From contig CM069149.1 of the NCBI GenBank assembly GCA_035221665.1, positions 40,424,001 through 40,488,000 on the forward strand: a DNA stretch of 64,000 nucleotides, written 5' to 3'. A program made the position numbers and the translations under genes. The notes below the pieces were generated by a model. That model was not told the origin of the DNA. It searched no databases and saw only the letters and a program-made list of their open reading frames with translations. Below are positions 5,926 through 64,000 of the stretch, one piece after another (within the stretch, counting starts at the first letter, position 1; the number at the start of each line of letters is the position of its first letter). This stretch comes from Okamejei kenojei. Its lineage: Eukaryota.

Positions 5926-7661
5926 CAGAGACTCCAACCCCAAGCACCTTCTGATCTGGAGATTCTCCCGCCTGGATCCCCTAGGAAACTGGAGACTCCA
6001 AACTCATGTGCCCTGGAAGCTCTAGGGTTCCTCTCTGGTGCTATCTTAGGCTTATTTTTGAACATATGATCACACTAAATTAGTAACAATCCAATGCTTC
6101 AAATCATATATAATTGCTTAATAAAGATTCTTCATTTTGGTTTCTTGGAACATCTTACCACAGAGATGTGAGAGAATTAGAGAAAGCAGTGATCTCTGGA
6201 GTAAGGTTTTTCCCAGTTGGTTATTAACAATTTCACTGCTTCTGAAAATTTTCTGATTTGTTAAATTCTGATCAGTACTTACCAACTCATAAAATCCAAC
6301 GTTTAATGTTAAGTCACTCAGTGAGCCATTCATAACCCGGCAAAATATGATTTACTAAATTAGTTTCAATGTCATTTATCATGCAAGTCTTCCATATCCA
6401 TAGTCCTTGTCTTCCTTTTCTTTAGACAGAAGTATATTCTTGGTTGTATTTTTTTGTTGCTACCTTTGCTGCCCTTATCAAACTTTTTGGAGGGATGAAT
6501 TTGTAGCTGGGCTCATCGCAATTGACCTTGCAGCTGAGAATTGCAGCAGTGGCATGGCTGGTCAGTTTTGCAATCTCACTATCTGGGAACATTGCTTTGC
6601 ATAAATCTGTAAAGCTGTCCCCCAGACTGAATGGCAAGTTAGACTCGGCGATCCACTGGCAGACCAAGATTTCTGCCTTTGTCACTCTGTCTTGACAGGA
6701 ATCAGTCTCCTTCGATTGGCCAAAATAATCCGCCATTCTTGCCTGCCTGCCCTCTCTTTTGACGGCATGGAGTTTTGCATGGTGGCTTGCCAGGCTCACA
6801 TGCTTAACCATATCACTGATGCCCCCATGCTTCACGGAAAATGTAGTAACACAATACGTGCAAAAACAGTTGAGGTGCCGGTGTCCTTCTGATGAGGAGT
6901 CAGCCCACGAAATCGGTCTTCTCGGAACCACTCTGGTTTCCATGAGCACAAATACTTCTTTTTAGTTTTAATACTGCTACTAGTACTTCTAGTACTTCGC
7001 CGTCGCCTCCGGCATTCTTCCGTTTGGCAGACATGACTTTACTCGATCTCTAGAACTTGAAGTCTAGTCTAGGCTGTCAAGTGCATAGCCGGCCCAATGC
7101 ATGCATATGCAGCTAGCTACGTAGCTACGTAGCTACGTGTATGTAGCTAATAATACACGTACACACGTACGAGCTAGCTTCGCTCGATCTACATCTACCT
7201 TAGATAATCTGGACCATAAAACACGCGTGTACTGCATCAAGGCCCACGGTCACGGAGTCGCGTCGGATCGGAGTGTGATGCTAAAGCAAATAGAGCTACA
7301 TTATATACACGGTGCTGTGTGTATCGAACGCGGGCCGGGGGGGGGGGGGGGGGGGGGGGGTAGAGCGCCTAGCATGCACATTATACATGTATGCACTACA
7401 TGCATTTAAACGTATATAGTATCGCGTGTGCGCATTTGGTGATTTATACACCGTGGAAATGCATGAAAATTAAATTCCACTTTTCAAAAAGGAGATTGGG
7501 CGGGAGAAAGAACATTTCAAGCGGGAGAAAATACATCTTAAATGGGAGACACAAAGCCAGGGCGGGAGAAATTAAATCTCAAGCGGGAGAGCGGGAGATT
7601 TTGCGAAAATGGCCTTTCGGCGGGAGATCTCCCGCCGAAAGCGGGAGAGTTGGAGTCACTG
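5926..7661 (-). mobile_element. Internally deleted hAT-like DNA transposon with zinc-finger transposase N-terminus
   Basis: TIRs CAGAGACTCCAAC and GTTGGAGTCACTG; flanking duplication GCATTGA (5919-5925, 7662-7668); repeated GCGGGAGA subterminal motifs at 7500-7650. ORF 6422-6949 has CTYC..FSVKHGGISDMVKH..LASH and NLPFSLGD...MFPDSEIAK. Confidence 0.85.
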
Positions 7662-32218: not shown

Positions 32219-32460
32219 GTTATTAGAGGCAGCGCTGATAGAATGCTTCACACTGGGCGGCGATTGATGGCCGCGGATTCAACTCGTCCCATGCCGTACC
32301 CACCAGTGAATGTGACAAATGGCACAGACACTTGCATTCTCTTTCACGCTGCCAGCCTGCAACTAAAAGTCAATGGAACACTCATCGACTTGACCAATGA
32401 AACCTTTATTTCCAGATCGGTGGACACCGATAGTTCCATGTGTTCAACCGCAAATGTCAC
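32219..32460 (+). CDS. ATP6AP1-like: ATP6AP1-like exon 7
   Basis: ttccag|GTT...AC|gtaagt; VIRGSADRMLHTGRRLMAADSTRPMPYPPVNVTNGTDTCILF...DLTNETF...SMCSTANV; several N-glycosylation sequons. Confidence 0.93.
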
Positions 32461-33249
32461 GTAAGTTGAAGAAATAACGCTAGTAAACCTAAATATCAGC
32501 CCACAGAGGTTTTCCTTCACAAACGCACGCTGTGATTTAAGACTATAATGGATTTAGACACCTATTCCTTTTTAACTATGTGGGCTGCACAGCGGTAGAG
32601 TTGCTGCTTTAAAGCGACAGTGACCAGGGTTCTATCCTAACTACGGGTGTGCTGCTCTCCCTGTGAACACGTGGGTTTTCAGCTCACATTTCCTCCCACT
32701 CTCAAAAAATGTGCAAGTGTGTAGGTTCTGTAAATTGTCCCTAGTGTGTAGGATAATGTTAGTCTATGGGATGATCGATGGCTGGCACGGACTCGGTGGG
32801 CTGAAGGGCCTGTTTCCGCGCTGTATCTCTAAAGTCTAAAGCAATAATCCTATTGAATGGCAGAGCAAACTCAACAGCTGCTGTCTACATTCTCCGGTGG
32901 ACCAGATACCCATGGCATGAACTGTTTATTTAACAATTAGATGGTTTGTCAGCCTACTTAGTCAATGGCCATACGCTGAATTCCTTTTCCCAAAAGAACG
33001 CGAGTCTTTTTTTCAAAATACTAGTCTTTTTTTTCACGAAAGCCTCATCGATATTAACACTTAATTCTAATTGTATTTATCTGTGTTCCATTTCCTCAAT
33101 TGGCACCTGAGATTTGAATGTGATTCATTTTGCCTGTAGATTATTGAACAATAATATAACTACACTACACTGCCTGACGTGTAAACATCTGCTCAACTCT
33201 TGTTTTTATAAATATTCTTTTTTCACACTTTTAATGTTCTGTATTTCAG

Positions 33250-33312
33250 GTTATCACTCAAGTATTCACTCCAACAAAGTCCAAGTCTCAGTCTTAAGAC
33301 TCTAGAAATCCG
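33250..33312 (+). CDS. ATP6AP1-like: ATP6AP1-like exon 8
   Basis: tttcag|G...CG|gtaagt; LSLKYSLQQSPSLSLKTLEI(R), phase 2 to 2. Confidence 0.88.
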
Positions 33313-33866
33313 GTAAGTCACTATCATTTTATAAATTCATAAGTTATCAGAGCAGAACCACTTGGAGCAGAATTAGGCCATTCGGCCCCATCAGATTTAC
33401 TCCACCATTCAATCATTGCTGATCTATCTTCCCCTCTGCCGATTATGGGTGCTGTCTGTACAGAGTTTGTACGTTCTCCCCTTGACGTGCGTGGGCTTTC
33501 TCCAGGTGCTCCGGCTTCCTCCCACACTCCAACGACGTACAGGCTTGTTGGCTAATTGGCTATAGTAAAATTGTAAATCGCCCCTTATGTGTGTAGAATA
33601 GTGGTAGTGCGTGGGGATTGTTGGTCAGCGCGAACTCGGCCGGCCAATGGGCTTGTTTCCTGGCTGTATCTCTAAACTAAACTAAAAAAAAAATCCAAGA
33701 GACCGTAACTTATCAATTCTGCTTCTGAATAACAATATATATATATATATATATATTTTTTTTTTGTTGTTGTGAAGTTACAGCCAATATAACGTGGTTT
33801 GAACACACAATAATTCACGAAACAATTTTTTCAAACATTATTTACTGATTCTGCTTTCCTTCCAAG

Positions 33867-34104
33867 GTTTATGATGAGGAATCGTTTCTACAAAGTATCA
33901 GCTCGGCACTGGTTTACCTTGGATTTTGTTGAGATAGTGCAGGATGAAGTGAATGTTGCAGTGTTTAATGTATCCAGCGTCTCAGCCCCACATCAATATT
34001 CCTTCCACTGTCAGCTGGTCGGAACCAGTGGGCTCTCTGGAGCATTGCTTATTCCGGCTAATGATGCTGCTGGAGCCTGGACCATCACAATTTCTGAGTT
34101 TCAG
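33867..34104 (+). CDS. ATP6AP1-like: ATP6AP1-like exon 9
   Basis: tccaag|G...CAG|gtaagt; FMMRNRFYKVSARHWFTLD...APHQYSFHC...WTITISEFQ. Confidence 0.95.
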
Positions 34105-34735
34105 GTAAGTTGGTAATATATATGTGCAGTGGCGCAGTGGGTAGAGCTGCTGCCTCACAGCGCCAGAGATCTGGATTTGATCCTGACCTCGGGTGCTGTC
34201 TGTGTGTGGTGAGCACGTTCTCCTTGTGACCACATGGATTTTCTCCGGGTGCTCCGGTTTTCTCCCATGTCCCAAAGACACACGGGTTTGTAGGTTAATT
34301 GGCCTCAATAAATTGACTTTAGTGTGCAGGGAGTGGACGAGAAAGTGGGATAACAAAAAACAAGTGAAAGAGTGATCGATGGTCAGCATGTAATCTGAGG
34401 GCTGAAGGGCCTGACACCATACTATATCTCTAAGCTCTGAAATGAATGGCATGGTCTTCAGCAATGGTTGGTCCCTGTAAACGTTCAGATGTGGGCATTA
34501 ACATTGGACCTGAAGGAGCAGTCTAAGGTGAATGCCTCACCCCTGTGTCCAATTTTATGCTTTAACTCTGAATCACAATTCCAAACCCATTTAATAAAAT
34601 GTACAAGGATGGCATTGTTCTAACGTTCTGTACGAAGCCAAAGATAACCTTTTATGCAACTGGGTCTGGTCGTAATTAAAAATACTAATCTGTACTTCAT
34701 CTGTTCTTTTTTTTTATCTCTTCTTGCTTCAACAG

Positions 34736-34945
34736 ATTCAGGGTTTCAACGTGGAGGACAACCGATTTGCTTATGCCAGTGACTGTTCTTCCTTCTTCAC
34801 AAGGGCTATTTGGATGGCCCTGGTGACATCACTGATTCTTTTGTACATCCTCACCTTTGGCATACACATGATTATGCAATTGACAACAAACGACCGCTTT
34901 GATGATCCCAAAGGCCAGGCCTTAATAGTTCCCCAGACTGACTAG
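34736..34945 (+). CDS. ATP6AP1-like: ATP6AP1-like exon 10 (TM helix, cytosolic tail, stop)
   Basis: caacag|ATT; IQGFNVEDNRFAYASDCSSFFTRAIWMALVTSLILLYILTFGIHMIMQLTTNDRFDDPKGQALIVPQTD*. Confidence 0.95.
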   Translation: MQGFNVEDNRFAYASDCSSFFTRAIWMALVTSLILLYILTFGIHMIMQLTTNDRFDDPKGQALIVPQTD

Positions 34946-47245: not shown

Positions 47246-48772
47246 CTTCCTACAACAAAACAATGACATTCTTACTTGCTGCAGCTTAACAGGCCGGTAA
47301 ACGCAATGACAACATTGTTACATAATACTTAAAATACTACAAATGAATACCGTGATATCAGGGACCCGTTATCATGTAAAAACCGAAGTCCGTAGTGCAA
47401 GCGAGGGCTCAGTTCACAGAAGGGATAGCATGGTGGTGCAATGGTAGAGCTGCTGGCGCACAGCACCAGAGATCTGGGTTCAAACCTAACTACGGGTGCT
47501 GTCTGTGTGGAGTTTGTGCGTTCTCTCTGTGACCACGCGGGTTGTTTCCGGGTGCTCCGGTTTCCTTCCACATCCCAAAGACGTGCTGGTTTGTAGCTGA
47601 ATTGGCTTGTGTAAATCACCCCTAGTGTGAAGAACTGGTGTGTGTCTGATCGCTGGTCAGCGTGGACTCAGTGGGCCGAAAGGCACGTTTCCCCGTTGTA
47701 TCTCGAAACTATCCAAACTCTCTAAACTCTAAAGGTCATAGATGCTGATGTTAGTGCTGTGCAGTGTTCAAGAGCCTGATGGTTGTTGGGAAGAAGCTGT
47801 TCTTGAACCTGGTGACCATGGTTTTCAGGCTCCTGGACCAACTTGTCGATGGGAGCAGGGAAATGAGAAAACGTCCAGGGTGGTGTGGTTCTTTGATGAT
47901 AATGGGTACCTTTTGAGGCAGCACTACTAATAGATCCCTTTTACGGTGGGGAGGTCAGTCCCTGTGATGGACCAGGCAATATGTATCACTATAGTCTACT
48001 ACACTCCTGGGCATTCCAATTACTGAACCAGGCCGTGATGTACCCAGTTAGTGTGCTCTCCCTGAACCACCCTTGTAACATGTACAAAGTACCAATTTGC
48101 TGGCTTGTTTTCCAAAGAAAAAAAGGTTGGACATTTTACGAAAAGTATTTGTGTCGCGGGGAACTGCAGATGCTGGTTTAAACTGAAGACAGACACTAAA
48201 AGCTGGAGTAACTCAGCAGGTCAGGCAGCACCTCTTGAGAAAAGGGACAGGTGACGTTTTGGGTCGAGACCCTTCTTCAGACTGAGAGTCAGGGGAGAGG
48301 AAAACGAAATATAGACAGTATATGAATGGAAGTTATGCAAAAAGCAATGATAATCAAGGAAATGTGGTCCATTGTCAGCTGTGGGATAAGTTATATCGAG
48401 TTATACAGGTCGACAGTAAAACTAGTGCGGCAACTAGTGCGGGAAATGTATGAGGTTGGCCAATGCTATTTCAGCCAGAAATACTTTGCAGAATTACAAT
48501 GTTTTCACACAAGATTGTGCAGTGCATTTCAGTTCAGTTTATTGTCACATGAACTGAGGTACAGTGGAAAGCAAAATACATAATTAAAATAAGATAGTAA
48601 ATCAATAGTATTGCAATAAACAACTGAGAACTTGCCCTTTCATCAGAGATTTAGCAAATGGGCATCTAATTAACAAAGATTAATTTTCAACCAGCTCAGG
48701 GGTCGAGTTCTATTATTTGTCACTGAGCCAGCTGGAGGGGAGGTGTGTCTTAAAGATTAACTCGTGAAGCAC

Positions 48773-48780
48773 TATTTAAG
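48773..48780 (+). promoter_or_regulatory. Candidate TATA-like box of the SLC13A1-like gene
   Basis: TATTTAAG about 60 nt upstream of a Kozak-context ATG (GCCATGG) in repeat-free sequence. Confidence 0.4.
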
Positions 48781-48834
48781 CTTCAGAAGAACCATTGACT
48801 TGGAGCAGTTAGCTCTGACAATTCGCCTCAAGCC

Positions 48835-48933
48835 ATGGGTTTACCCAGTCATGTCTGGTGCTTCCGAAAGTTGATCATTATTTTGTTCGTTCCTCTGTTA
48901 TTCCTGCCGCTGCCTCACATCGTCAAGACTAAA
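48835..48933 (+). CDS. SLC13A1: SLC13A1-like exon 1
   Basis: MGLPSHVWCFRKLIIILFVPLLFLPLPHIVKTK|gtaaga, 99 nt. Confidence 0.88.
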
Positions 48934-51535
48934 GTAAGAGATTTGTTGGCCAAATATCTACTGCGCTAAATAGACTTGTTTTGCTTTTCCACCTTTGCTG
49001 CTATTAATCTTATGGTCAGCATAATGGTCAGCATTATGTTGAAATGATCTTTTCTACATCACGGCAGCTTGCCAACAGACTACTTTCTCTATGAGGGACC
49101 ATTAATGCAGGGATTTATTTTTAAGATGATTTTAATTTTGATTTCAGCACCATCTGCGTTATATTGTACCATATTGTCATTTATATTGTCATTTCCAGAT
49201 TTTAAAAAAAAATGTTGAAGGTAAATGTTCTGGTAATGCAAAATCATCTCAAATCAAATCTATGAAATCAAAACAAAATGATATTCTGAAATGTAATTTT
49301 CAATTCCCTAATACAGACTAGGCAAACAAAGAAGTGTATGTCCCGGTCCCAAGATCAAGTGTTTTAATTACATTTTGTGTTAAAAAGTATTTTAAAATGT
49401 CAATGGCAACACCAATTTGAAGGGTCTATGGTCAATAAGGTTTAGTCTACTTGCCTGAGTTGTCTCCTGCCTTCTTCTATGCTCACTGTGATACACTTGT
49501 CACTGTCACCTAGTCCAATTTCTAGATATTACTGGACTGTGAGTTTCATGAAACCTACAGCTCGAAATCATGATAATCGATAAAGGGCAGCGGGGTGGTG
49601 CAGCGGTAGAGCTATTTCCTTACAGCGCCAAAGTCCCAGGTTCAACCCTGACTACGGGTGCTGTCTGGACAGAGTTTGTCCGTTCTCCCCGTGACCTGCG
49701 TGGGTTTTCTCCAAGATCTTCGGATTCCTCCCACACTCCCAAGACGTACAGGTTTGTAGGTTAATTGGCTTGGTATAAATGTAAATTGTCCCTAGTGTGT
49801 GTCGGATAGTGTTAATGTGCGGGGATCGCTGGTCAGTGCAGACTCATTGGGCCGCAGGGCCTGTTTCCGTGCTGTATCTCTAAACTAAACTAAACTGCAG
49901 AATGGCAATAGATTCCACAAGATACTCCACCTACTTTACTAATGCAGCAAAGACACAGAACACAATTGGGCTGTATCTCTAAACCAAACTAAACTAGAAA
50001 GTCAATTCTTAATGAATGAATAGAAATGTCTTTTATTTTTTTGGGGGTTAAAGTGTTGGCATGGGATCGGGGGATGTCGGGTGTCATGGCTGTTGTGACT
50101 GTGTGCTGGGATTATCTGGTACAAATATACCTCTCTTTATTTAAATTCTTTCTGGTAGCTGATTTTCACAAAAGAGAAGCCTTCTTGACTTGTTGCGACT
50201 CAAACAGTGCTTGAATACAGAAAATGTTTTGAAGCACAATATTTTGTGTACAAGGAAACTGATACCGGGATGCATTTTCAACTGAGCCTTGCCTGGTCCA
50301 AGGTTCTGAAGTTTTCAAAGCTGAATGGAAGTCAACTTACACAGCTTTGAATTCCTGATTCAAGGAATTGTAACAAGCAGACTGACACTGATCAGGTTTG
50401 CAACCAAAGAAGGCATACGTAGAGCATAGAACCGTACAGCATAGGCACAGGCCCGCAATGTCGAACAACTAATATCCTCTGCATGCACGTGTTCAAAATT
50501 GACGGTCCCTTTGTGGAATTGACGGAAGTGACAGTGGGTGGGAATGGAAAGTTGACGTTTTGGGTTGAGACCCTTCTTCAGAATTCTCCAATCTGTCGCT
50601 CCTATTGATAGCAGATTTAAGAAGGTCCTTCCCTGGATGAAACCGCTTCTGAACTTTGAGAAACGTGGTTGGGTTTAGAGAAAAAAGGAAACAATGACAA
50701 AACCAAACATTGGTAACTCTGGTGTACCTTTTCAAAGCAGCTCTATGCAAAAGTAGGTATCTTTTTATAATACGGACATTTAGGTATAACATGAAAATAT
50801 GTATTCATTGAGATTCTCAAATGAAAATCAAGTGAGTTCTGGCCAACTGGTAATGAAATTGATTTAGCTCACTGCAACATCTAAAATCAAACTAACTGCA
50901 TGATTTTGCAGTCTCTTGCCCAGAGTAAGTGAATCGAGGACACGAGGACATAGGTTTAAGGTGAAGGGGAAAAGGTTTAGGAGGAATGTGAGGGGTAACT
51001 TTTTCACACAAAGGGTGGTGGGTGTATGGAACAAGCTGCTATAGGAGGTAGTTGAGGCAGGGACTATCCCAACGTTTAAGAAACAGTAGGACAGGTACAT
51101 GGATAGGCCGGGTTTGGAGGGATATGGACCAAATGTGGGCAGTTGGGATTAGTGTAGTTGGGACATGTTGGTCAGTGTGGGCACGTTGGGTCAAAGGGTT
51201 TGTTTCCACACTCTGTCACTCTATGACTATGATTTATGACCAGCTGCAAACTTTCTGATTTGGATTTGCATGTCTGGAATTCGCTTTCTTAAAATTATTC
51301 AGCAAAATTAAGAAGTCAAGAATTCACAGAATCTTTTTTTTTGGGAGCAAACTTAATTCAAAGTTAACACTTGGAGGGTTGAACTGCAGAGTTCTGTTGA
51401 TGTTATAGTGGCGATGGTTAGTTCATTGATGATACAGCAAGTGAATCTCAGGAATAACAAAAACAGCTCTATCTTTTTTTGAATTTGCAATTGATATTGA
51501 TTCTACTGTTTGTTATTCTCTCTCCTGGTCAAAAG

Positions 51536-51665
51536 GAGTCTGAATGTGTTTTCGCAATGCTGGTTGTGGCGGTATTTTGGCTAACTGAAGCCATGCCGCT
51601 TTCTGCAACAGCTTTACTCCCGGCACTCATGTACCCTCTCTTTGGCAATCATGAAATCCTCGGAG
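51536..51665 (+). CDS. SLC13A1: SLC13A1-like exon 2 (130 nt, frameshifted)
   Basis: aaaag|GAG; ESECVFAMLVVAVFWLTEAMPLSATALLPALMYPLFG, extra A at 51647/8, then IMKSSE|gtgagt in the shifted frame. Confidence 0.9.
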
Positions 51666-52233
51666 GTGAGTTACGGTACAAACCTTATGCAAATGAACAC
51701 TCCACTAACAAGCAAAACAAAGATTAGTCTGAAGAAGGGTCTCGCCCCGAAATGCCACCCATTCCTTCTCTCCAGAGATGCTGCCTGTCCCGCTGAGTTA
51801 CTCCAGCTTTTTTGTGTCTATCTTCAGTTTAAAGCAGCATCTGCAGTTCCTTCCTGCACAAGATAAGGGAATAAAATTTAGTGCATGGTAAAGCCAGTAA
51901 ATAGTCTGAGGGTCACCAATGAGGTAGATAGTAGATCAGGGCTGCTCTCTAGTTGCGGTACGATGGTTCAGTTGCCTGATAACAGCTGGGAAGAAACTGT
52001 CATCTGCGATCGCGCATTACAATAATTCCGCTCTTTTAAATCTCCATCCCGACAGCAACATTTCTTCTGTACACTGTGGATGGATCAATAGTATCATGTA
52101 TTTTCTTTCTGCCAACTGGTTAGCACACAACTAAAATTTCTCGCTGTATCTTGTGACTATAAACAAAACTAAATTAAACAACAAAAATGTAAAACAACAT
52201 TGTCCCAGATAATGTGGTCAGGAGCAAGGTAAC

Positions 52234-52477
52234 TTCAGATAGCCCTTGCCTTTTCTCTCCATTCCCTTTCCATTTCCCATTCCCCCACCAGTCTTACTGT
52301 CTCCGCCTACATTCTATCTTTGTCCCGCCCCCTCCCCTGACATCAGTCTGAAGAAGGGTCTCGACCCGAAACGTCGCCCATTCCTTCTCTCCAGAGATGC
52401 CGCCTCACCCGCTGAGTTACTCCAGCATTTTGTGTCTACCTTCGATTTAAACCAGCATCTACAGGTCTTTCTGACAC
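52234..52477 (+). mobile_element. Penelope-like 3' fragment with 11-bp TSD
   Basis: AGCAAGGTAAC duplicated at 52223-33 and 52478-88; contains an intact hammerhead core. Confidence 0.8.
52348..52375 (+). ncRNA. Minimal type I hammerhead ribozyme core (intact, sense to the SLC13A1-like pre-mRNA)
   Basis: CUGAAGA-A-GGGUC-UC-GACCC-GAAA-CG-UC. Confidence 0.72.
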
Positions 52478-53515
52478 AGCAAGGTAACGACTTTTGTTGT
52501 TAACTCTAACAAATGCTTATTTTGGCATTGGTTATAGACTTTCTCCATTATGATGTGACTTAGATTTGACACCATCAGTGACACTAAACAGCTTTGTTTA
52601 ATGCAAGACTGGTTTAACAGTCAATTAAGATTGGCCAGTTTTCATAGGCAAAAATGCAGTCACTAATTTATACTGTCGTACACAAGCGAAATTAAGTGGG
52701 ATGTAAAAAAAAGACACAAATAGAAATATTAACTTAAAAAACCCCAATTAATTTTAAGATTTTAATAATTGTTGATTTTTTAATGTTTTGAGTTCTGAGA
52801 GAGTCCACATTTATAAACTATGTTTAATAATAATAATAAGATATTTTATTGTCATTACACCTAAATGCAACGAGATTTGGTTTGCAACTTCCATCTGATG
52901 TCATAACTTAATCGACAAATAAAATTTAGGTTTAGATACCCCGAGAACAAGGTTTGTAAAACGAACATTAGACCAGTAAAGTCAAAACAGACTAAAGTGC
53001 AGATGTGTCTGTGCGACGTGACCACCCGAGTTTTCAGGGCAATAGAGAGTGCTCAGCAATAAAAATGTCTTGGGATTCCATTAAAACCCGATTCATCTTA
53101 TTCAACAAACTTTAACCTGTTTAAGAACTTTTACAGCAAAAATAGCATTTAAGGATTGGGTTTCATGTCAATTCTCTGCTTCTCTGCTAATTAAGTGCTT
53201 GAGAATTGCCAGTGTATGTACTGTACATAGAGGGTAATGTCCCAATTTCTTTGCATCATTGTTCCTGAAAGACTGATGTGGCTATAGGCTTTGGACATTA
53301 ATAAGTGCATACTATTCAGCTGCCATTACCATCGCAGATTCTAGACCCACAATTTAATTAACTTTAATTAGCTGGTCGGCGTGGACTCGGTGGGCCGAAG
53401 GGCCTGCTTCCGCCACGTATCTCTAAAGTTCATTGCATTCAACTTTGCTAAATATGAGATTAATTATTCTGTGGAGCCTTTCTGGTTTTGCATCACCTTG
53501 TTCTACATTTAACAG

Positions 53516-53700
53516 GCTAATGATGGGGTTTATGCTCAGTTGCGTTTTCCTCTCGATGTGGCTCAGTAACACCTCCACTGCAGCTATGGTGATGTCCATC
53601 GTTGAGGCCGTTCTTCGACAGATCGTGAAGGCAGAGGCGGTGACCGATGCGGCTCACAACACGATGAATGGATTCACAAACCAGGCCTTGGAAGTGAATG
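53516..53700 (+). CDS. SLC13A1: SLC13A1-like exon 4 (first SNT motif)
   Basis: aacag|G...G|gtgaga; LMMGFMLSCVFLSMWLSNTSTAAMVMSIVEAVLRQIVKAEA...NGFTNQALEVN. Confidence 0.92.
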
Positions 53701-53820
53701 GTGAGATGTGAGAGAGAGAGCACGCTCAGTTTGGTGCTCAAGTTATCTTACTTCTTTTAGTTATTTGGTTTGATCTCTACACCTACATTCACGCTGCCTC
53801 TGTTACCCTTTAAATCAAAG

Positions 53821-53941
53821 AGAAAGATGAAGAAGTGATGAAGAAGTTGGAAGAAAAAGAACAAGTCGAACTTGAGTGGCGTACAAAGGAATTAGTAAAG
53901 GAAAATGAACGGATGAAGGAAAAAAACAAAGAGATGAATGG
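53821..53941 (+). CDS. SLC13A1: SLC13A1-like candidate exon 5 (charged loop)
   Basis: tcaaag|AG...GG|gtagtg; open frame EKDEEVMKKLEEKEQVELEWRTKELVKENERMKEKNKEMNG; phase 1 to 2. Confidence 0.7.
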
Positions 53942-55242
53942 GTAGTGTATTAAACAAAAATTATTACTATGTGGTCAGCTCACACGTTGTTCCTTTCCTA
54001 TCTTATGTGAGCTGATTAATTTCCTTATTCACAATGCAAAGTTTACAGGACAACCCAATATGATAGAGTGGACGTGGAGAGGATGTTTCCACTGGTGGGA
54101 GAGTCTAGGACCCGAGGCCATAGCCTCAGAATTAAAGGACCCACCTTCAGAAAGGAGCTGAAGATGAATTTCTTCAGTCAGAGGGTGGTGAATCTGTGGA
54201 ATTCATTGCCACAGAAGGTTGTGGAGGCCAAGTCAATTGATATTTTTAAAGCAGAGATTGATGGATTCTGGATTAGTACAGGTGTCAGGGGTTATGGGGA
54301 GAAGACAGGAAGATGGGGTTGAAAGGGAAAGATAGATCAACCATGATTGAATGGCCGAGTAGACTTGATGGGCCGAATGGCCTAATTCTGCTCCTATAAC
54401 ATGATTGCTAATATTTTGAAGAGCAGTTAATTTATGAAAATTCTGAAAGTCATTTTGAGTTGATGACTTAGCTCCTACATCCTGTAAACCAGTCGCAAGG
54501 GATATCAAGGGTTTAGATGGCTGCGAACCCGGACTGCCAACCTGGTCAGCATGGATAGGTTGGGCTGAAGTGCCTGTGCTCGTTTGATGCGATGATGATA
54601 TTACTTAGGCTGTTGGAACTGGTCTTCATGCTGTTTCCTGTTCAGACCAGGTGAAGTTTATTGAATACGCTAGTTCACACTGTTCACGGCTCTGATGTTT
54701 GCTGCAAGTGTCGCTTACAAGCAGTTAATTTGCTTGTTGAAGTTGTCTGTAATTTTATTTCATGGGTTGATTCCACTTAAAGGTAGGATTTTCTCATCAT
54801 GTTTGTCTATTTCATTAAAATGTGACTGAAAGTTTCGCTTTGATAGAGAAAGATAAAACTGATATTGAACTTTCTTCAGCAGTAGTGTCATTAATATAAG
54901 TACGTGGGTGGCACAGTGGTGGAGCGGTAGAGTTGTTGCCTCACAGCGCCAGGGCCTGGATTCCATCCTGACTGCAGGTGCTGTCTGGATGGAGTTTGTG
55001 CGTTCTCCCTGTGACTGTGTGGGTTTTCTCCGGGTGTTCCAGTTTCCTCCCACATTCGAAAGTCGTGCAGATTTGTAAGTTAATTGACTTCTGTGCATTG
55101 TCACTAGTGTGTGGGATAGAACTAGTGTATGGGTATGGTATGGTACTTTATTTGATCACTTGGTGATCATTGGTCGGATTCGGTAGGCCGAAGGGACTGT
55201 TTTCATGCTGCATCTCTAAACTAAACTAAACTAAATTAAAGG

Positions 55243-55826
55243 ATTGGGTGAGATCAAACGTAGACTGGGCGATCATTTGACACCTTCGTTCTGTCCATCT
55301 GGACCTAACTGATCTCCTGTCTTCTAAGCATTTTAACTCCCCCTCCCATTCCCACACTGACCTTTCCGTCCTGGGCCTCCTCCACTGTCAGAGTGAGGCC
55401 AAACGCAAATTGTAGGAACAGCGCCTCATATTTCGCTTGGGCAGCTTACACCCCAGTGGTATGAATATTGATTCCTCTAACCAAGTAACCCTTGTATCCC
55501 CCCCCCTCTCTCCATCCCTCCCCCACCCAAGTCGTATCAGCTTCAAAGTTGTTTTGTTGAGTCTCATTATCTGTAACTCATTCCTATCTAGCTCACAGCT
55601 AACGATGGCCTGTTTCCTTTATCATCGTCACGTTTTTGTATATCTTTCATTCATTTGTTCCATATCTCTTTACATCTCCGTCTATATCCCTGCTGTTCAT
55701 CATTGTTTCCCTCTCCCCTGACTCACAGTCTGAAGAAGGGTCTCGAACCGAAACGTCACCTATTCCTTTTCCCCAGAGATGCTGTTCGACCCACTGAGTT
55801 ACTCCAACTCTTTTGCGTCTATCTTC
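55243..55826 (+). mobile_element. Penelope-like 3' fragment (endonuclease C-terminus plus terminal repeat, hammerhead core 55730-55757)
   Basis: IGEIKRRLGDH...HFNSPSHSHTDLSVLGLLHC...LIFRLGSLHPSGMNID, then CTGAAGAAGGGTCTCGAACCGAAACGTC. Confidence 0.85.
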
Positions 55827-56122
55827 TAATTAAGGATTGCTCTGATGTGCGGAACAAATAATGTGAGCCGAAGTGCCTGTTCCTGTGTTGAACTGTTCTA
55901 TGCTCTGTGACAAATAACAGGCTGCGCATGATGAGAACCTGTGATTCAAATCCTTTCAGAAGACAAAATAAAATGCGCAAATAAGCGTTTCAATGTTGCG
56001 ATGAGTTTTCACTATATCTGCGAATACCACAAAGTGCAAACGACCTCGCCGATCGCGGTTCTAGCAGATTGACTTCACAATTGATGATGTTATCATCCTC
56101 TGATACATTTGTCTCATAACAG

Positions 56123-56159
56123 CCTAATCAAGAGCAATGATCACAGTCAGGAGAAAATG
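56123..56159 (+). CDS. SLC13A1: SLC13A1-like candidate exon 6
   Basis: taacag|C CTA ATC AAG AGC AAT GAT CAC AGT CAG GAG AAA ATG|gtttgc; phase 2 to 0 bridges exons 5 and 7. Little motif support. Confidence 0.5.
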
Positions 56160-57139
56160 GTTTGCAATGATTCACTGTAACTAGTCTGCAAGCCAAACGA
56201 CATTTGAGTTTACATTGTAAAATTGCTGCTTTGACATGCGTGTCAGATTTTAATTGCGACTCAAATGTGCTGCTATCGAAGATTACATACTATGCCCTTC
56301 ACATTTCAATTGTAGCATGAGTCATAAATTATAGGGCAATACATTAAGATAGACGTTCGAAAAATGTGAAGGAATTTGCATATTTAGTGGTTTAATAATT
56401 TGTCTACAATGCCTTTCACTATCCCCTTCCATAGTCTTATGTGACTTTATTCAATGGAAAGATGCATTAGTTTGGCTTTGGTTCAGTTTAGCAACGTAAC
56501 ACGGAAATTTGCCTTTTTGGCCCATTGAGTCCATGTTGACCATCGATCACCCATTCACACTAGTTCTATGTTATCTCATTTTTACATCCACTTAGGTTAA
56601 GTTTGGTTTGGTCTACTTGGGTTTGGTTTGGTTCAGTTTAACAAAGCAGCACAGAAATTGGCCCTCTCATCCCACTGAGTCCATGCCCAACATCGATCAC
56701 TGGTTCACACGCGTTCTATGTTATCCCACTTTCTCATCCACTTCCGACACACTGGGGGCAATTTTTGCAGCAGCCAATTAATTCACGGACCTGCACGTCT
56801 TTGAGGTGGGAGGAAAGTAGAACACCCAGAGGAAACCCAAGTAGTCACAGGGAGAATGTGCAAACTCCACACGGACAGCACCCAAGGTCAGGGTCGAACC
56901 CGTGTCTCTGGTGCTGTGAGGCAGCAGCTGTGCCAAGATACCACCCATAATTCCAGTTATAGTTTGGATGTCAATTTAATTCCAATTACACTTGCTTTAA
57001 CTTTCTCTAAGAACCCATTTGGGAGGTCAAAGGTTCATGCTCAAGGAGCACTTAGGCCATTTGGCACATCTTTCCCTCTCAACCCTATTCTCCTGCCTTC
57101 CCCCCATAACTCCTGACAGGCGTATTAATCCAACATTGA

Positions 57140-57947
57140 AACATAGACATAGAAACATAGAAAATAGGTGCAGGAGTAGGCCATTCGGCCCTTCGAGCCT
57201 GCACCGCCATTCAATATGATCATGGCTGATCATTCAACTCAGTACCTGCCTTCTCTCCATATCCTCTGATCTCTTTAGCCACAAGGGCCACATCTAACTC
57301 CCTCTTAAATATAGCCAATGAACTGGCCTCAACTACCTTCTATGGCAGAGAATTCCAGAGACTCACCACTCTCTGTGTGAAAAATGTTTTCCTCATCTCG
57401 GACCTAAAGGAATTCCCCCTTATCCTTAAACTGTGACCCCTTGTTCTGGACCTCCCCAACATCGGAAACAATCTTCCTGCATCTAGCCTGCCCAACCCCT
57501 TAAGAATTTTGTACGTTTCTATAAGATCCCCCCCTCAATCTTCTAAATTCTAGCGAGTACAAGCCGAGTATATCCAGTCTTTCCTCAAATGAAAGTCCTG
57601 ACATCCCAGGAATCAGTCTGGTGAAACTTCTCTGTACCCCCTCTATGGCAAGAATGTTTTTCCTCAGATTTGGAGACCAAAACTGTACGCAATAATCCAG
57701 GGGTGGTCTCACCAAAACCCTGTACAACTGCAGTAGAACCTCCCTGCTCCTATACTCAAATCCTTTTGCTATGAATGCCAACATACCATTAGCTTTCTTC
57801 TCCGCCTGCTGCACCTGCATGCCTACTTTCAATGACTGGTGTACAATGACACCCAGGTCTTGTTGCAGCTCCCCTTTTCCTAATCGGCCACCATTCAGAT
57901 AATAGTCTACCCTCCTGTTTTTGCCACCAAAGTGGATAACCTCACAC
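57140..57947 (-). mobile_element. CR1-type LINE fragment
   Basis: CEVIHFGGKNRRVDYYLNG...DLGVIVHQSLK...[23 protein letters not shown]. Confidence 0.9.
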
Positions 57948-59186
57948 ATGTGTCAATCTCTGCCCTAAAAAGCATGAAGCTGCAATTTCTTATAGTTTCA
58001 TAGCTTCTTTTACCCAGCATCCATGCATACTCTAACTAGAACTCGGCCTCAATAGGACAAGCTAATGCTAGACACAGTCAGCCCAATCTGCCATTTGCAT
58101 TACCACCTGGCCTGTGCAAAAGTTATCAATCGGTCTACTGACACGTTAGTAGTTTAGTTTGGTTTAGAGAAACATTGTGGAAACAGGCCCTTCGGCCCAC
58201 CGAGTCCGCACCTACCAGCAATCCCCGCATATAAACACAACCTTACGCACACTAGGGACAATTTACATTTACTCCTAGCCAATTAAGCTACAAATCTGTA
58301 CATCTTTGGAGCGTGGGAGATCTCGGACTCCATATAGACAGCACCTGTAGTTGGGATCGAACGCGCGCTGCAAGGCAGCAACTCTACCGCTGCGCCACCG
58401 TGCCTCTCTAAAAAGTACCTGGAATGTTAACTGTGTTTCTTTCTCCACCAATGCCACCTGACATGCTGATTATTTCCTGAATTATTTTGTTTTAATTTCT
58501 GCATTTGCAGTAGATGTCTCACTGATTGTGTTTGGCTGCCCAGTCATTCTATTGGTGAAGATATTCAAGAATGCAAAATCGAATCAGAAGAGGTAACTAA
58601 TTTTCCTAATAACACTTGCTTAACTTGAATTACAATCCCAATCCTCTGTTTTGCTGTCAGTCTTAAGAATTCTACCATTTTGGCTGTGAAGTTGTAAACT
58701 TGCAAGTTTAATTTCTTTCTTGGCATCAGATTTCTTCCATAATTAAGCATTCCCTTCTGCCCTGAGATTGTTCAATATGGAACATTGGTTCACTCGATTG
58801 CTCAGTCTTCTGAAATGAACTTGAATTTTGGCAAACTATTCGAATATAGTTGTATAATGGTTGCTTCAAGATTTGTGTAGTTCTGAGATACAACACGGAA
58901 ATAGGCCCTTCGGCACACTGAGTCCACATTGACTAGCGATCACCTCGCACACTATCACTATCTTACACACTGGTGGGAAAAATGTACAATTTTTACCGGT
59001 CAATTTGCCTTCAAACCTGTACATCTTTGGAATGTGGGAGGATGCGGGAGATCCCGGAGAAAACCCAGGCGGGTCGCGGGGAGAGCGCACAAACTCCATA
59101 CAGACAGCACTTGTAGACAGGATTGAACCCGGGACTCTGGCTCTGTGAGGCAGCAACACTAATGCTGTGCCGCCGTGCCCCTATAA

Positions 59187-59577
59187 AGCCCCTGTCCCAC
59201 TTAGGAGACCTAAACAGCAACCTCTGGTGACCTTGCCCTCCACCCAAGATTTCCATAAAGTCACCGGAGGTTTTGGTCACTCTCCCTAATGGTCGAAAGT
59301 GGTTTCTGCATGGTCGAGGCTTCATCTAGGTCGCTGCTATTTTTTCAGCATGTTTAAAACCGGCCTCGACTAAAAATAGGTTGCCGTTTTAAAAATCGAT
59401 CAATTTTTTAGTCGCAGGTCTTGTCGAAGCCACTTTTCTTCATAGTTGAGGAAGGTTTTCAACATATGCGTGGGAGGTGGTAGGAGGTTGCAGGTTACCT
59501 CGACCTTGATTTTCTTTTTGGGTGACGGGCAAGGTCACCAGAGGTTGCTGTTTAGGTCTCCTAAGTGGGACAGGGGC
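59187..59577. mobile_element. PIF/Harbinger-like MITE with 51-bp perfect TIRs
   Basis: GCCCCTGTCCCACTTAGGAGACCTAAACAGCAACCTCTGGTGACCTTGCCC (59188-59238) is exactly inverted at 59527-59577; TAA on the left flank. Confidence 0.88.
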
Positions 59578-59765
59578 GTCACCACCTACAGTCCATTTGT
59601 ACAAATTCCAGTACTAATAGAGTAGAGAAGTCTGTTTTTATCGTTTCTCGCCAGTGCAGAAAAATGTAAAGCACTTAAGACATTTGGGATCTTCTGACCA
59701 TTGCACCAGCATGGTTTAACTAACCCATCACAGATCTGAAGCCATCCCTGCTCCATTTTTCCAAG

Positions 59766-60195
59766 TGTGTAGGAAAGAACTGCAGATGCTGGTTTAAATT
59801 GAAGATAGACACAAAATGCTGGAGTCATTCAACGGGCCAGGCAGTCTCTCTGGAGAGAAGGAATGGGTGACATTTCGGGTCGAGACCCTTCTTCAGGCTG
59901 ATGTCAGCGAAGTTGGGGGTACATAGGTAAGGAAGTGTAAGATGTGAAAACACGATAAAGGGAATGGAGATCAAGGAAAATGTAGAATAGATGATTGTTA
60001 GTTGGGAGAAGTTGAAACAACAAAGCAAACAGATAAAATATAGTCAGAGACAGTAAGACTAGTCAGAGAACTGGGAAGGGGGAGGGGATGGAGAATGAGG
60101 GAAAGCAAGGGTTACTTGAAGTTAGAGCTGGGTTGTAAGCTGCCCAAACAAAATATGAGATGGTGTTCCTCCAATTTGCGCTGGGCCTCACTCTT
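59766..60195 (-). mobile_element. Penelope-like 3' fragment
   Basis: Reverse complement matches the 55243-55826 copy, including the hammerhead-like motif at about 59868-59897. Confidence 0.8.
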
Positions 60196-61010
60196 CCAAA
60201 TGTTATGTTGATGGAAGAAGCGGACTTAATCACTGCAAACCATTGTCTTCTCGATCATCTGTTCTATCCATAAAACAGTACCATTGACATAACGTATAGA
60301 AAACACAGCAAAAATACCCAAAGGTGCAGGGTAAAAATGTAAAGCACTGAGCACTGAAGGCTGGAATTGCAGGAATGGAGAATTTTCAGGGAAGTTTAGT
60401 TTTAGAATACAAGTCAGAAAGAATCCTAAGACAATACATGATTGCAATGAAACCATCCACATTGTATAGACACAGGATAAAGGGTCTAACGTTTGGTGAT
60501 TAAGACATGCTGCTGTTGGAGTAGGGGTTTAAAAGAGTGGAGCGATTGTAACGAAGTGATTGCAGATCCACGTCTGGGACCAGCGCGCAGAGAGTAACTT
60601 GCCTTAGGTGCCATCTTGTCCAGCTTCAGTGTTTCAGTCTTTCTTCTTTGCAGAATTCTCCCTCTTATTTTGGTGCCTCAATCGAAAACACACCCTGCAT
60701 TTATCTGATTGTTGACATAAATTAAAAATGATTGCAATTTGTAAATCATAAAACAATTGTATTTGGAACTGTACTCGGATCTGATGATAAAGCACAGACA
60801 CCAAAATCCTATACTTCCAGAGATGTGTGGTGCTTCCGTCACCGTTCCCGTTGGAAACCCGCGCCACTGCTCCGCTAATGTGTTCAACGATGGTGAATGA
60901 ATGAACGAACTGTGGCCTGCTGTCTTCCCACATCCAGGTGCCACATGGAGTGTAAAATGTATCAGAATATTTCCCAATGATACTCTAGTGGGTTTTTTTT
61001 TCTCCAATAG

Positions 61011-61165
61011 GCTGCAAAAGAAGGTGTGAGCAAATATAAAAGTGAGAAAGATAGTAACTTATGCAAAGGAATCTGTCTCTGCATTGCTTACTCTTCCACT
61101 ATCGGAGGATTAACTACAATCACTGGCACCTCCACTAACCTTATTTTTGCTGAGGAATTCAACAT
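61011..61165 (+). CDS. SLC13A1: SLC13A1-like exon 7
   Basis: caatag|GCT...AT|gtgagt; AAKEGVSKYKSEKDSNLCKGICLCIAYSSTIGGLTTITGTSTNLIFAEEFN. Confidence 0.93.
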
Positions 61166-62113
61166 GTGAGTATTTCGCACCATTTTATATATATTTATTG
61201 AACTTGCCCAGTGAATTCTGTCTCCTTTCCTATTACAGTTTAGTAAAACTCATTAAGATGCAGTTAGTGGATTGAAATAGTAGTCTGCCTGCTTTGTGTA
61301 CTGTATATGGTGAGGGCAAAGGACACAGTAAATGGCAAGACTCTGAACAGCATTTTCCCAACTCCTGACATCAAGTTAACTGGTCTATAGTTCCATTTTC
61401 TCTCTCCTTCTAAAAAAAAATAAAACACATGTTACCTTAAAATCAATGATCAATGGAATTTAGGAAGATGATAACTAAGCTCTGAAGTATTGAGTCCAGA
61501 AGTTGGGAGGTCATGTTGCAGCTGTATAAGACATTGGTGAGGCTGCATTTGGAGTATTGTGTTCAGTTCTGGGCACCATGTTATAGGAAAGATGTTGTCA
61601 AGCTGGAAGAGGGTGCAGAGAAGATACACACGGATGTTTCCAGGACTCGAGGGCCAGAGCTATGAGGTAGAACAGGCTGGGACTCTAGTCCTTGGAGTGC
61701 AGGAGGATGAGGGGTGATCATATAGAGGTGTACGATATCATGAGAGGAATAGATAGGGTGGGTGTGGGCAGGTTGAGCCGAAGGGCTTGTTTCCACGCTG
61801 TATGACTCTATGACTCCATGCATGCACTGTCTCTGGGGTAAATGAAAAAAAAAAAAAAAAATTGGGAATGGTGGATATCTGAAAGTTAAACAAAAAAAAC
61901 AGAAAATGCTGGGAACACTCAACAGACCAGGCAGCATCTGTGTAAAAAGGAACACGGTTAACAGTTCAGGTTGAATTTTTTGACTTACCTGATGAAATGT
62001 TAAATCGGTTCCTTCTTCCACGGATGTGCTGATTGCCCCATAATCTTCTGTATTTGTTGTTATCTCCACAGCCAGCTTTTTCCAAAATCTTGGCTCACAG
62101 GTTATTAGCTGGT

Positions 62114-62303
62114 AGACAAAAGTGCTTGAGAAACTCAGCGGGTGCAGCAGCATCTATGGAGCGAAGGAAATAGGCAATGTTTCGGGCCCGAAAAGGTTGC
62201 CTATTTCCTTCGCTCCATAGATGCTGCTGCACCCGCTGATTTTTTTTTCTGGCACTTTTGTCTACCTTCAATTTTCCAGCTTCTGCAGTTCCTTCTTAAA
62301 CAA
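62114..62303. mobile_element. Fold-back Penelope terminal-repeat element with 13-bp TSD
   Basis: GTTATTAGCTGGT duplicated at 62101-13 and 62304-16; inverted arms around 62185. Confidence 0.8.
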
Positions 62304-62905
62304 GTTATTAGCTGGTGGGAATTTATCTGATGCCAATTCTGTTAATTTCTCTCATCTTTGCCTGTAAACTACCCACATTCTGTTTTGTTAATGTATTTGT
62401 TTTTATCTGCAAATGGTATTGAAGTCTGTTTTTTTAATAATTGTACCAGAAATAGTCAGATCAAGTGAGTCACAAATTCACAGGTTATAGTAGTAGAATT
62501 AGGCCAATCGGCCCATTGAGTCTACTCCGCCATTCAATCATGGCCGATCTCTGCCTCCTAATCCCATTTTCCTGCCTTCTCCCCCAATAACCCTTGCCAC
62601 CCGTTCTAATCGCGAATTTGTCTATCTCTGCCTTAAAAATATCCACTGACTTGGCCTCCACAGTCATCTGGGGCAATGAGTTCCACAGATTAACTACCCT
62701 CTGACTACAGAAGTTCCTTCTCACCTCTTTAATTCTGTGCCCTTTAATTCTGAGTGTGACCTCTGGTCCTAGACTCTCCCACCAGTGAACAAATCCTTTC
62801 CACATTCACTCTATCTGTGCCTTTTATTATTCAGTCAGTTGAGATTTGTAAAATTTTGTTTGAAATGAATAAGCAACCTTTTCCATAATATCATGTCTCA
62901 CTTAG

Positions 62906-63025
62906 GCACTACCCCAAATGCCACTGTATAAACTTTGGGTCTTGGTTCATTCTAGTCTTCCCGAAGACTGTGATCATTGTGGTTTTATCTTGGGTCTGGC
63001 TGCACGTGCTTTACTTTGGATTCAA
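62906..63025 (+). CDS. SLC13A1: SLC13A1-like exon 8
   Basis: cttag|G...AA|gtaagt; HYPKCHCINFGSWFILVFPKTVIIVVLSWVWLHVLYFGF, 120 nt. Confidence 0.92.
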
Positions 63026-63847
63026 GTAAGTAATCTGTTGACATTTTCACAGTCACTCCCAAAGAAGTAACATCTGCTCTTAGTTTCTTGTGCTCATAAA
63101 TTCTAGTAGTTAGAATCAATGATAGTCTGATGGTTTCCATTGGGGTAGTTCAGGACATCACTCTAGTTGTGGTAGGAAGGTTCTGTTCCCTGATAACAGC
63201 TGGGAAGAAACTTGATGGGCCGAATGGCCTAATGCTGCGCCTAAGGCTTATGAACATGAACTTTCTGTTTCTTTGTTCCATCGAGCGAAGAAACAGAAAG
63301 TTCATAAGTGATAGGAGCAGAATTAGGCCATTCAGCCCATCAGTCTACTCTGGCATTCAATCATGCCTGATCTTATCCCTCTCAACCCCATTCTCCTGCC
63401 TTCCCCCCGTAACCCGTGACACATTGTCTGAGGAAGGGGGAAAATCTAATCGCACATGGACCATAATATTAGCACATCAATGCTCTTCCATGTGGATTAT
63501 TAGCATTAATTTCCAGTCTATGGAATCTAAGCAGTTTCAAACTGTGGCATTGCTGGCAGAACTGCTGTCTCACAGCGCCAGAGACCTGGGTTCAATCCTG
63601 ACCTCAGGTTCTGTCCGTGTGGAGTTTGCGCATCTTCCCTCTAATCACTTGGGTTTCCTTTAGGTGCTCCGGTTTGTAGGTTAATTGGCCACTGTAAATT
63701 GCCTCTAGTGTGTAGGGAGTGGATGTGAATGTGGGATAACATAGAACTAGTATGAAGGGGTGATGCGTGGTTGCCGTGGGCTCTGCGCTGAAGGGCCTGT
63801 TTTCATGCTGTATCTTTCGGTTCAATTCAATTAAAAAAATAATCATT

Positions 63848-64000
63848 AGGAGCAGGGAGGTTCCACTTCAGTTGTACAGGGTCTTGGTGAGACCACACCT
63901 GGAGTATTGCGTACAGTTTTGGTCTCCAAATCTGAGGAAGGACATTATTGCCATAGAGGGAGTACAGAGAAGGTTCACCAGACTGATTCCTGGGATGTCA
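63848..64000 (+). mobile_element. CR1-type LINE fragment (runs off window)
   Basis: [42 protein letters not shown]. Confidence 0.88.

Follow-up and report, generated by a model that had tools for sequence, protein, structure and literature searches.

Inactivation of SLC13A1 in a Skate

The stretch analysed here comprises 64,000 nucleotides of Okamejei kenojei (the window; G000:C19:40424001-40488000 of a 2.76-Gb assembly) and contains exons 1-8 of SLC13A1, the gene of the sodium-sulfate cotransporter NaS1. The allele in the assembly is almost certainly null. It is probably the sole SLC13A1 of this skate and a unitary pseudogene, broken by two +1 insertions and the loss of exon 3, which decayed as sulfate-rich seawater made sulfate salvage dispensable. 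For seawater itself, as the permissive cause of the loss, our confidence is lower, and we lean towards it. A marine skate would have to excrete sulfate, salvage in kidney and gut would stand nearly idle, and null SLC13A1 alleles could then drift.

The gene had 14 exons with introns, spread over 38 kb at the syntenic site, and a processed (retro) pseudogene was ruled out by the introns and by this position. Exons 9-15 lay beyond the window, with the end at 86989 in continued numbering (C19:40510989), where position n equals G000:C19:40424000+n. Exon bounds were read off the sequence and then checked for AG/GT and phase; the numbering follows what we take to be the 15 exons of human SLC13A1. The layout was as follows.

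48835-48933, plus strand: exon 1, 99 nt, ATG at 48835
51536-51665, plus strand: exon 2, 130 nt, surplus A at 51647/51648 (frameshift 1)
53363-53371, plus strand: candidate breakpoint of the exon-3 deletion; unique sequence stops at 53363, 7-nt motif repeat, 5'-truncated repeat tail from 53371
53516-53700, plus strand: exon 4, 185 nt, first SNT motif; premature TAA at 53518-53520 after splicing
53821-53941, plus strand: exon 5, 121 nt, weak donor GTAGTG from 53942
58544-58592, plus strand: exon 6, 49 nt
61011-61165, plus strand: exon 7, 155 nt
62906-63025, plus strand: exon 8, 120 nt, carries M314K
63026-64000, plus strand: first part of intron 8; the gene goes on outside the window
66513-66611 (continued numbering from here on), plus strand: exon 9
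72317-72418, plus strand: exon 10
74019-74116, plus strand: exon 11, non-consensus donor GTTGAG at 74117
76047-76157, plus strand: exon 12, 111 nt, surplus G at 76077 (frameshift 2), W454L and S457P
76983-77144, plus strand: exon 13, L>P and P520H
79453-79590, plus strand: exon 14
86852-86989, plus strand: exon 15, natural TAG stop

Lesions and Predicted Product

A tblastn search with full-length SLC13A1 of ray, skate and shark recovered all conserved exons except exon 3 among the matches listed, and the exon-3 motif was absent from all six frames of the window. The size of exon 3, 137 nt, was inferred from the alignment. The reading frame of the gene broke at residue 71. Splicing of exon 2 to exon 4 gave GGC-TAA, with a stop at 53518-53520 and a product of 77 aa; when the surplus A was removed in silico, the stop moved to 53567, inside exon 4, and the product reached 93 aa. 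The inactivation put forward in a preliminary description of the stretch was thus confirmed by the lesions and the 77-aa stop. Its details were reproduced as well, namely the 130-nt exon 2 with an extra A, the lack of exon 3 between exons 2 and 4 (six-frame scan of the window and tblastn), the GGC-TAA stop and the out-of-frame join without the A. No N occurred anywhere in the locus.

At 53363, the unique sequence was followed by a 7-nt copy of the adjoining motif and then by a 5'-truncated repeat tail, which looks like a deletion running from unique sequence into a repeat. A mechanical search of intron 2 for cryptic exons returned AG..GT candidates, several of them within repeats, and none was exon-3-like.

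From the sequence, the spliced message is predicted to end after 77 residues and would go to nonsense-mediated decay. The exon-2 frameshift is predicted to remove both SNT motifs from the product; the motifs (exons 4 and 13) were still readable, yet downstream of the first stop. Any product would also be without exon 3, which corresponds to human residues ~77-122; this segment closes the first scaffold half and contains helix H4c with R107. A functional transporter takes a single frame of ~600 aa that spans the two scaffold halves and the transport domain, and here a stop after 77 aa and the absence of exon 3 were found.

Read Contigs from Two Organisms

Contigs from 6 of 24 listed sequencing runs were compared with the locus. 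X1 and X3 are runs labelled organism A, and X6 and X8 are labelled organism B. X3 differed from the window at 27 of 4766 letters and X6 at 92 of 3776 (2.4%). An X3 contig over 51203-51753 had 0 gaps, and hence the extra A of exon 2 was present. The same contig carried a non-window base at 51661, 14 nt off, which indicates that a second haplotype bears the extra A. Another X3 contig (53001-53398) spanned the 53363 junction with 0 gaps and extended 35 letters beyond it; no contig break occurred there, which suggests that X3 is homozygous at the deletion junction. As these X3 contigs reproduce both features, the exon-2 insertion and the exon-3 junction are not assembly errors, a possibility that the preliminary description had kept in view.

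Organism B lacked both frameshifts. In X6, one letter was left out at 51647, i.e., the extra A was missing. Another X6 contig matched 53028-53363 and then continued with 336 unlike letters, and B thus has at least 336 extra bases at the breakpoint. Exon 3 was probably located within the sequence missing there; exon 3 itself was unseen in B. Both X6 and X8 were without the extra G of exon 12, so that the exon of B measured 110 nt, and across exons 12-13 they kept W, S, L and P, against L, P, P and H in the window. The frame of B was therefore unbroken at both insertion sites, consistent with a loss after the split from this close relative.

The two private exon-13 changes tested were shared by X3 and absent from B. 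X3 had no cover at 76069-76113, and the depth arithmetic of an unaligned contig head (13+31 = 44 letters) implies that X3 carries a separate 45-nt deletion in exon 12, out of frame against the 110-nt exon of B. All three private X3 exon substitutions listed in exons 2 and 13 altered a residue, and V was replaced by D immediately ahead of the second SNT motif.

In X17 and X18, one contig each joined exon 4 to exon 5 over a 120-nt GT..AG intron, at depths of 2.8 and 3.5. No listed run carried an RNA label, and these two were rated probably DNA by an automatic classification, yet the join points to spliced RNA, and it confirms exon 5 and a residual transcription of the locus. The contigs of these two runs lie outside exons 1-2 and the exon 2-4 join and are thus uninformative on the lesions.

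Relaxed Selection and Date of Decay

Private amino-acid changes were counted where the other skates and Pristis agree, as a protein-level count without a codon model. The window had 18 such changes in 432 columns, vs. 4/418 in Amblyraja, 3/417 in Leucoraja and 6/420 in Rhinoraja (Fisher p 1.1e-4 against the pooled skates and p 0.02 against the worst skate). SLC13A4 of the same genome had one private change in 500 columns, and the two genes differed at p 1.5e-5; Rhinoraja showed 19/518 in this control, which marks it as the more distant skate. Of 222 columns that 40 bony vertebrates conserve, 11 were altered in the window, including P149S, W454L and P520H. In exon 4, P149S and Q156R both fell at conserved columns. 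Residue W454 aligns with human W433, which is a dimer contact in the cryo-EM structure (PMC11584011). Judged from these comparisons, SLC13A1 is under relaxed purifying selection.

The excess amounted to ~1.4% per non-synonymous site, against 1.2% for half of the B distance, which is a rough yardstick. The closeness of the two values suggests that constraint lapsed at about the time of the split from B. Lesions at the 5' end probably came first, and those at the 3' end are probably still accumulating, as the assembly and X3 carry different damage in exon 12. The apparent closeness of X1 to the window over exons 1-5 likewise fits early 5' lesions and later 3' decay. Earlier, the remaining exons had been described as well preserved and the loss as young. 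This preservation holds only in part, given a second frameshift and an approximately four-fold excess of changes, invariant residues included. Nor was a young loss upheld, since the data fit neutral drift over the greater part of the period after the split from B.

Identity, Neighbors and Copy Number

Exon 7 best matched the SLC13A1 of Amblyraja (96%), Leucoraja and Rhinoraja (both 94%) among the best 120 of 394 matches. A tree of 30 rows took in SLC13A1 and SLC13A4 and left out SLC13A2/3/5; in it the read-through joined the three skate SLC13A1 at 100/99, and SLC13A1 and SLC13A4 fell on opposite sides of a 100/100 branch. An alligator protein named SLC13A4 (P0125) grouped with SLC13A1 (97/93) and is a misnamed record. 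Against the three skate models, the read-through had 90-92% identity over 519-528 columns, with shared exon order and neighbors.

An ATP6AP1-like gene adjoins SLC13A1. It matches the turtle model P0034, an annotation in which both neighbors are fused, and was located by tblastn with the N-terminal part of that model.

32267-34939, plus strand: ATP6AP1-like (V-ATPase S1) gene, three exons; upstream neighbor of SLC13A1 and synteny marker

An NDUFA5 exon was found 116 kb upstream on the same strand, which presumably matches the human gene order, and another neighboring exon resembled what we take to be IQUB. Apart from this intron-containing C19 gene, an uninterrupted full-length NDUFA5 domain match at C38:7252161-7252361 is probably a retrocopy.

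SLC13A4 is on the same contig (C19:47.76-47.81 Mb), an arrangement apparently shared by at least four more batoids, in which the SLC13A1 and SLC13A4 proteins come from contigs of equal length. The exon-7 matches, the tree and the neighbors together identify the animal as a skate and the locus as the SLC13A1 orthologue, in line with the first assignment. The locus resembles SLC13A1/NaS1 (DASS family, Pfam PF00939; human structures 8y5u and 8w6h) in exon order, neighbors and sequence; the skate copy differs in its two frameshifts, missing exon 3, 77-aa stop and altered invariant residues. SLC13A4/NaS2, also a sodium-sulfate cotransporter of this chromosome, belongs to a separate clade and is strongly conserved in this genome but for an unverified +1.

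The 46-residue exon-3 peptide was searched across the whole assembly, as had been suggested at the outset. It gave eight matches, namely SLC13A4 (74%, the best match to the missing exon), five copies on C26, SLC13A3 on C20 and one at E 5.6, which is chance level; none lay at the locus, and the paralogue exons serve as a positive control. Full-length Leucoraja SLC13A1 gave 68 matches (74 of 101 candidates scored), and 12 of the 13 at ≥68% identity fell in this locus, the remaining one being a C26 paralogue exon. Neither search returned a second SLC13A1 locus, and the intact syntenic copy that could have overturned the first description was not found in the assembly.

The C26 copies (C26:25433000-25660000) are five tandem SLC13A2/5-like genes in a region that holds 500 N. 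The first copy has fewer exons, and in two of the copies SDT replaces the first SNT motif.

Seawater and Alternative Explanations

NaS1 is an apical transporter of the proximal tubule and intestine for sodium-coupled sulfate uptake; in eels it serves reabsorption in fresh water, and a general role in teleosts is debated (PMC8098666). Salmon slc13a1 was confined to the intestine, and salinity had no regulatory effect (PMC8495805). In the red stingray (Hemitrygon), kidney slc13a1 was 0.3-0.5 TPM (transcripts per million) in seawater and rose 12.8-fold in fresh water (PMC9396271). In saltwater turtles the gene was under positive selection and was not reported as lost (PMC13221643).

Several observations weigh against a fixed loss permitted by seawater. 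In the annotated proteins of Amblyraja, Leucoraja, Rhinoraja, both Mobula and Heptranchias, the frame was kept through exons 2, 3 and 12, and of 251 conserved columns only 2-6 were altered. We take all six to be marine. With these six keepers, and with B free of the frameshifts, seawater alone does not remove SLC13A1; thus, the original notion of seawater as a sufficient cause was not supported, and seawater looks permissive, not sufficient. As to fixation, X3 shared the 5' lesions, and in X1 exon 13 still encoded L and P, the ancestral residues, with 8 differences over 446 letters, so that an intact allele may still be present within organism A. X3 or X1 may derive from the assembled animal, and the two are not surely independent individuals. 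The +G of exon 12 was covered by neither X1 nor X3 and comes from the assembly. An unverified +1 C in SLC13A4 exon 8 of the same assembly (L010 about 1850; G000:C19 about 47796850) shows that lone indels here can be errors. Finally, X17 and X18 show, at low depth, that transcription and splicing of the locus persist.

The strongest alternative, which we nevertheless consider unlikely, is that the loss is real and salinity incidental. A weakly expressed gene, covered by SLC13A4 or SLC26 exchangers, would then have been lost by drift. The retention of SLC13A1 by marine relatives agrees with this, as does the omission of exon 5 and most of exon 6 from the skate models, which would be expected from scarce transcripts. 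On the other side, the species without the protein or with a damaged model are all marine, and the models of the three euryhaline species (Pristis and Hypanus presumably so) are complete. In the seawater stingray kidney, slc13a4 was at 84-209 TPM against 0.3-0.5 for slc13a1, which again favors drift, whereas the induction of slc13a1 by fresh water speaks for salinity (both PMC9396271).

Somewhat less likely still is a null allele that is real but unfixed, with intact and broken alleles segregating under the label organism A, or with a label that spans two close species. X1 is the main support for it. Seven of its eight differences in the 446 letters around the ancestral exon 13 were listed, and all seven were common to B; over three listed pieces X1 differed from the window at 9 of 679 letters, and X3 at the 27 of 4766 given above. 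Against it, X1 held 0.71 of the words of 48700-54000 (X3, 0.69), corresponding to 75-88% of unique words, and is thus near the window over exons 1-5. The unbroken X3 contig at the deletion junction, which suggests homozygosity, argues in the same direction.

An assembly artefact, with an indel error and a stretch collapsed between repeats, is very improbable, and for exons 2 and 3 it is largely refuted. Intron 2 is rich in repeats, and the +1 of SLC13A4 was one case in seven paralogue genes checked, with lower sensitivity for the other six. X3 contigs reproduced the extra A and the junction, though, and the locus was free of N. The 18 private amino-acid changes are unlike indel errors, and two of them in exon 13 were common to X3 and absent in B. 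The frameshift screen of the five C26 copies and SLC13A3 gave 0 candidates in six genes, at only about 30-70% query identity. The extra C of SLC13A4 could be an assembly error; alternatively it is a very recent lesion, in which case the skate would be without both sodium-sulfate cotransporters. Two skate-like SLC13A4 proteins, P0193 and P0195, had no bearing on this +1, because next to it they carry the residue of the Leucoraja model and not that of this genome.

That the locus is an inactive duplicate of an intact SLC13A1 at some other place would have a precedent in the tandem duplicates of another SLC13 gene on C26, and the assembly may be incomplete, but this is hardly credible given the empty searches (74 of 101 candidates scored in one) and the expected neighbors, with SLC13A4 on this contig too, as is apparently the case in at least four more batoids. 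A shortened protein that still works by exon skipping or by a restart in exon 4 has the exon 4-5 spliced contigs and a 344-codon frame opening in exon 4 in its favor, and is just as implausible: that frame is without exons 1-3 and out of frame in exon 12 ahead of the second SNT motif, of the 16 exon-skip products that stay open, the 10 longest all omit exons 4, 7, 9 and 11, and both SNT motifs are needed for transport (PMC11584011).

Wider Pattern in Cartilaginous Fishes

Annotated proteins of other cartilaginous fishes were compared through SLC13A1 and SLC13A4 searches (best 120 matches each, reaching down to mammals). Records of SLC13A4 covered 20 chondrichthyan species (in the largest cluster, 15 of 26 members were listed). 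Among the matches listed, an SLC13A1 protein was found in 11 of these 20, plus Pristiophorus. None was found among them in the other nine, i.e., two Scyliorhinus, Mustelus, Cetorhinus, Rhincodon, two Chiloscyllium, Hemiscyllium and Callorhinchus; the absence of an annotated protein is not proof of loss. The Narcine model, named low quality, was altered at 19 of 236 conserved columns, and that of Pristiophorus at 21 of 243, with exon 9 missing; both look damaged. The Heterodontus model was without a normal exon 1; exon 5 (0-2% identity) was missing from all three annotated skate models, as was the larger part of exon 6. The nine species and also Narcine and Pristiophorus are all marine. Complete models were found in Hemitrygon, Pristis and Hypanus, the last two presumably euryhaline. 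Hemitrygon is described as euryhaline (PMC9396271).

The nine absences hint at repeated loss. We suggest, tentatively and with less confidence than in the skate itself, that marine sharks, rays and chimaeras lost SLC13A1 repeatedly (no protein across carpet, mackerel and ground sharks and in Callorhinchus, damaged models in Narcine and Pristiophorus, decay ongoing here), as a one-way step that helps to bar most cartilaginous fishes from fresh water. If so, the present skate would show this step while under way. The patchy absence in sharks makes the rarity of cartilaginous fishes in fresh water testable from genomes alone.

Relation to Known Gene Losses

The skate SLC13A1, a unitary pseudogene with support from reads, adds to a familiar type of gene loss. 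Unitary pseudogenes of vertebrate ion transporters (slc26a12p in birds and turtles, slc12a10 in mammals) are likewise single-copy genes decayed in place in some lineages (PMC11145369). The gene differs here, being one whose loss causes disease in mammals, and a frameshift-free relative and two differently damaged haplotypes date the decay. In dogs and humans, loss of SLC13A1 is reported to cause low blood sulfate and skeletal dysplasia (PMC3530542, PMC11803892, PMC10092256). The same gene is affected in the skate, which has a skeleton of cartilage and apparently tolerates the null. In a literature search of titles and abstract openings, no loss of SLC13A1 was reported in cartilaginous fishes; subscription journals were mostly outside its coverage, and the tables of lost genes in PMC13221643 as well as Table S2 of PMC9396271 could be relevant here.

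If the skate lives without SLC13A1, it would be a natural knockout in which seawater can replace renal sulfate salvage. Organism B, 2.4% distant and without both frameshifts, forms a close pair with it for comparing plasma and urine sulfate and low-salinity tolerance.

Elsewhere in the window, the minus strand held a 179-aa stop-free stretch at 6425-6961 that was unlike the usual repeats and is possibly a remnant of a DNA transposon.

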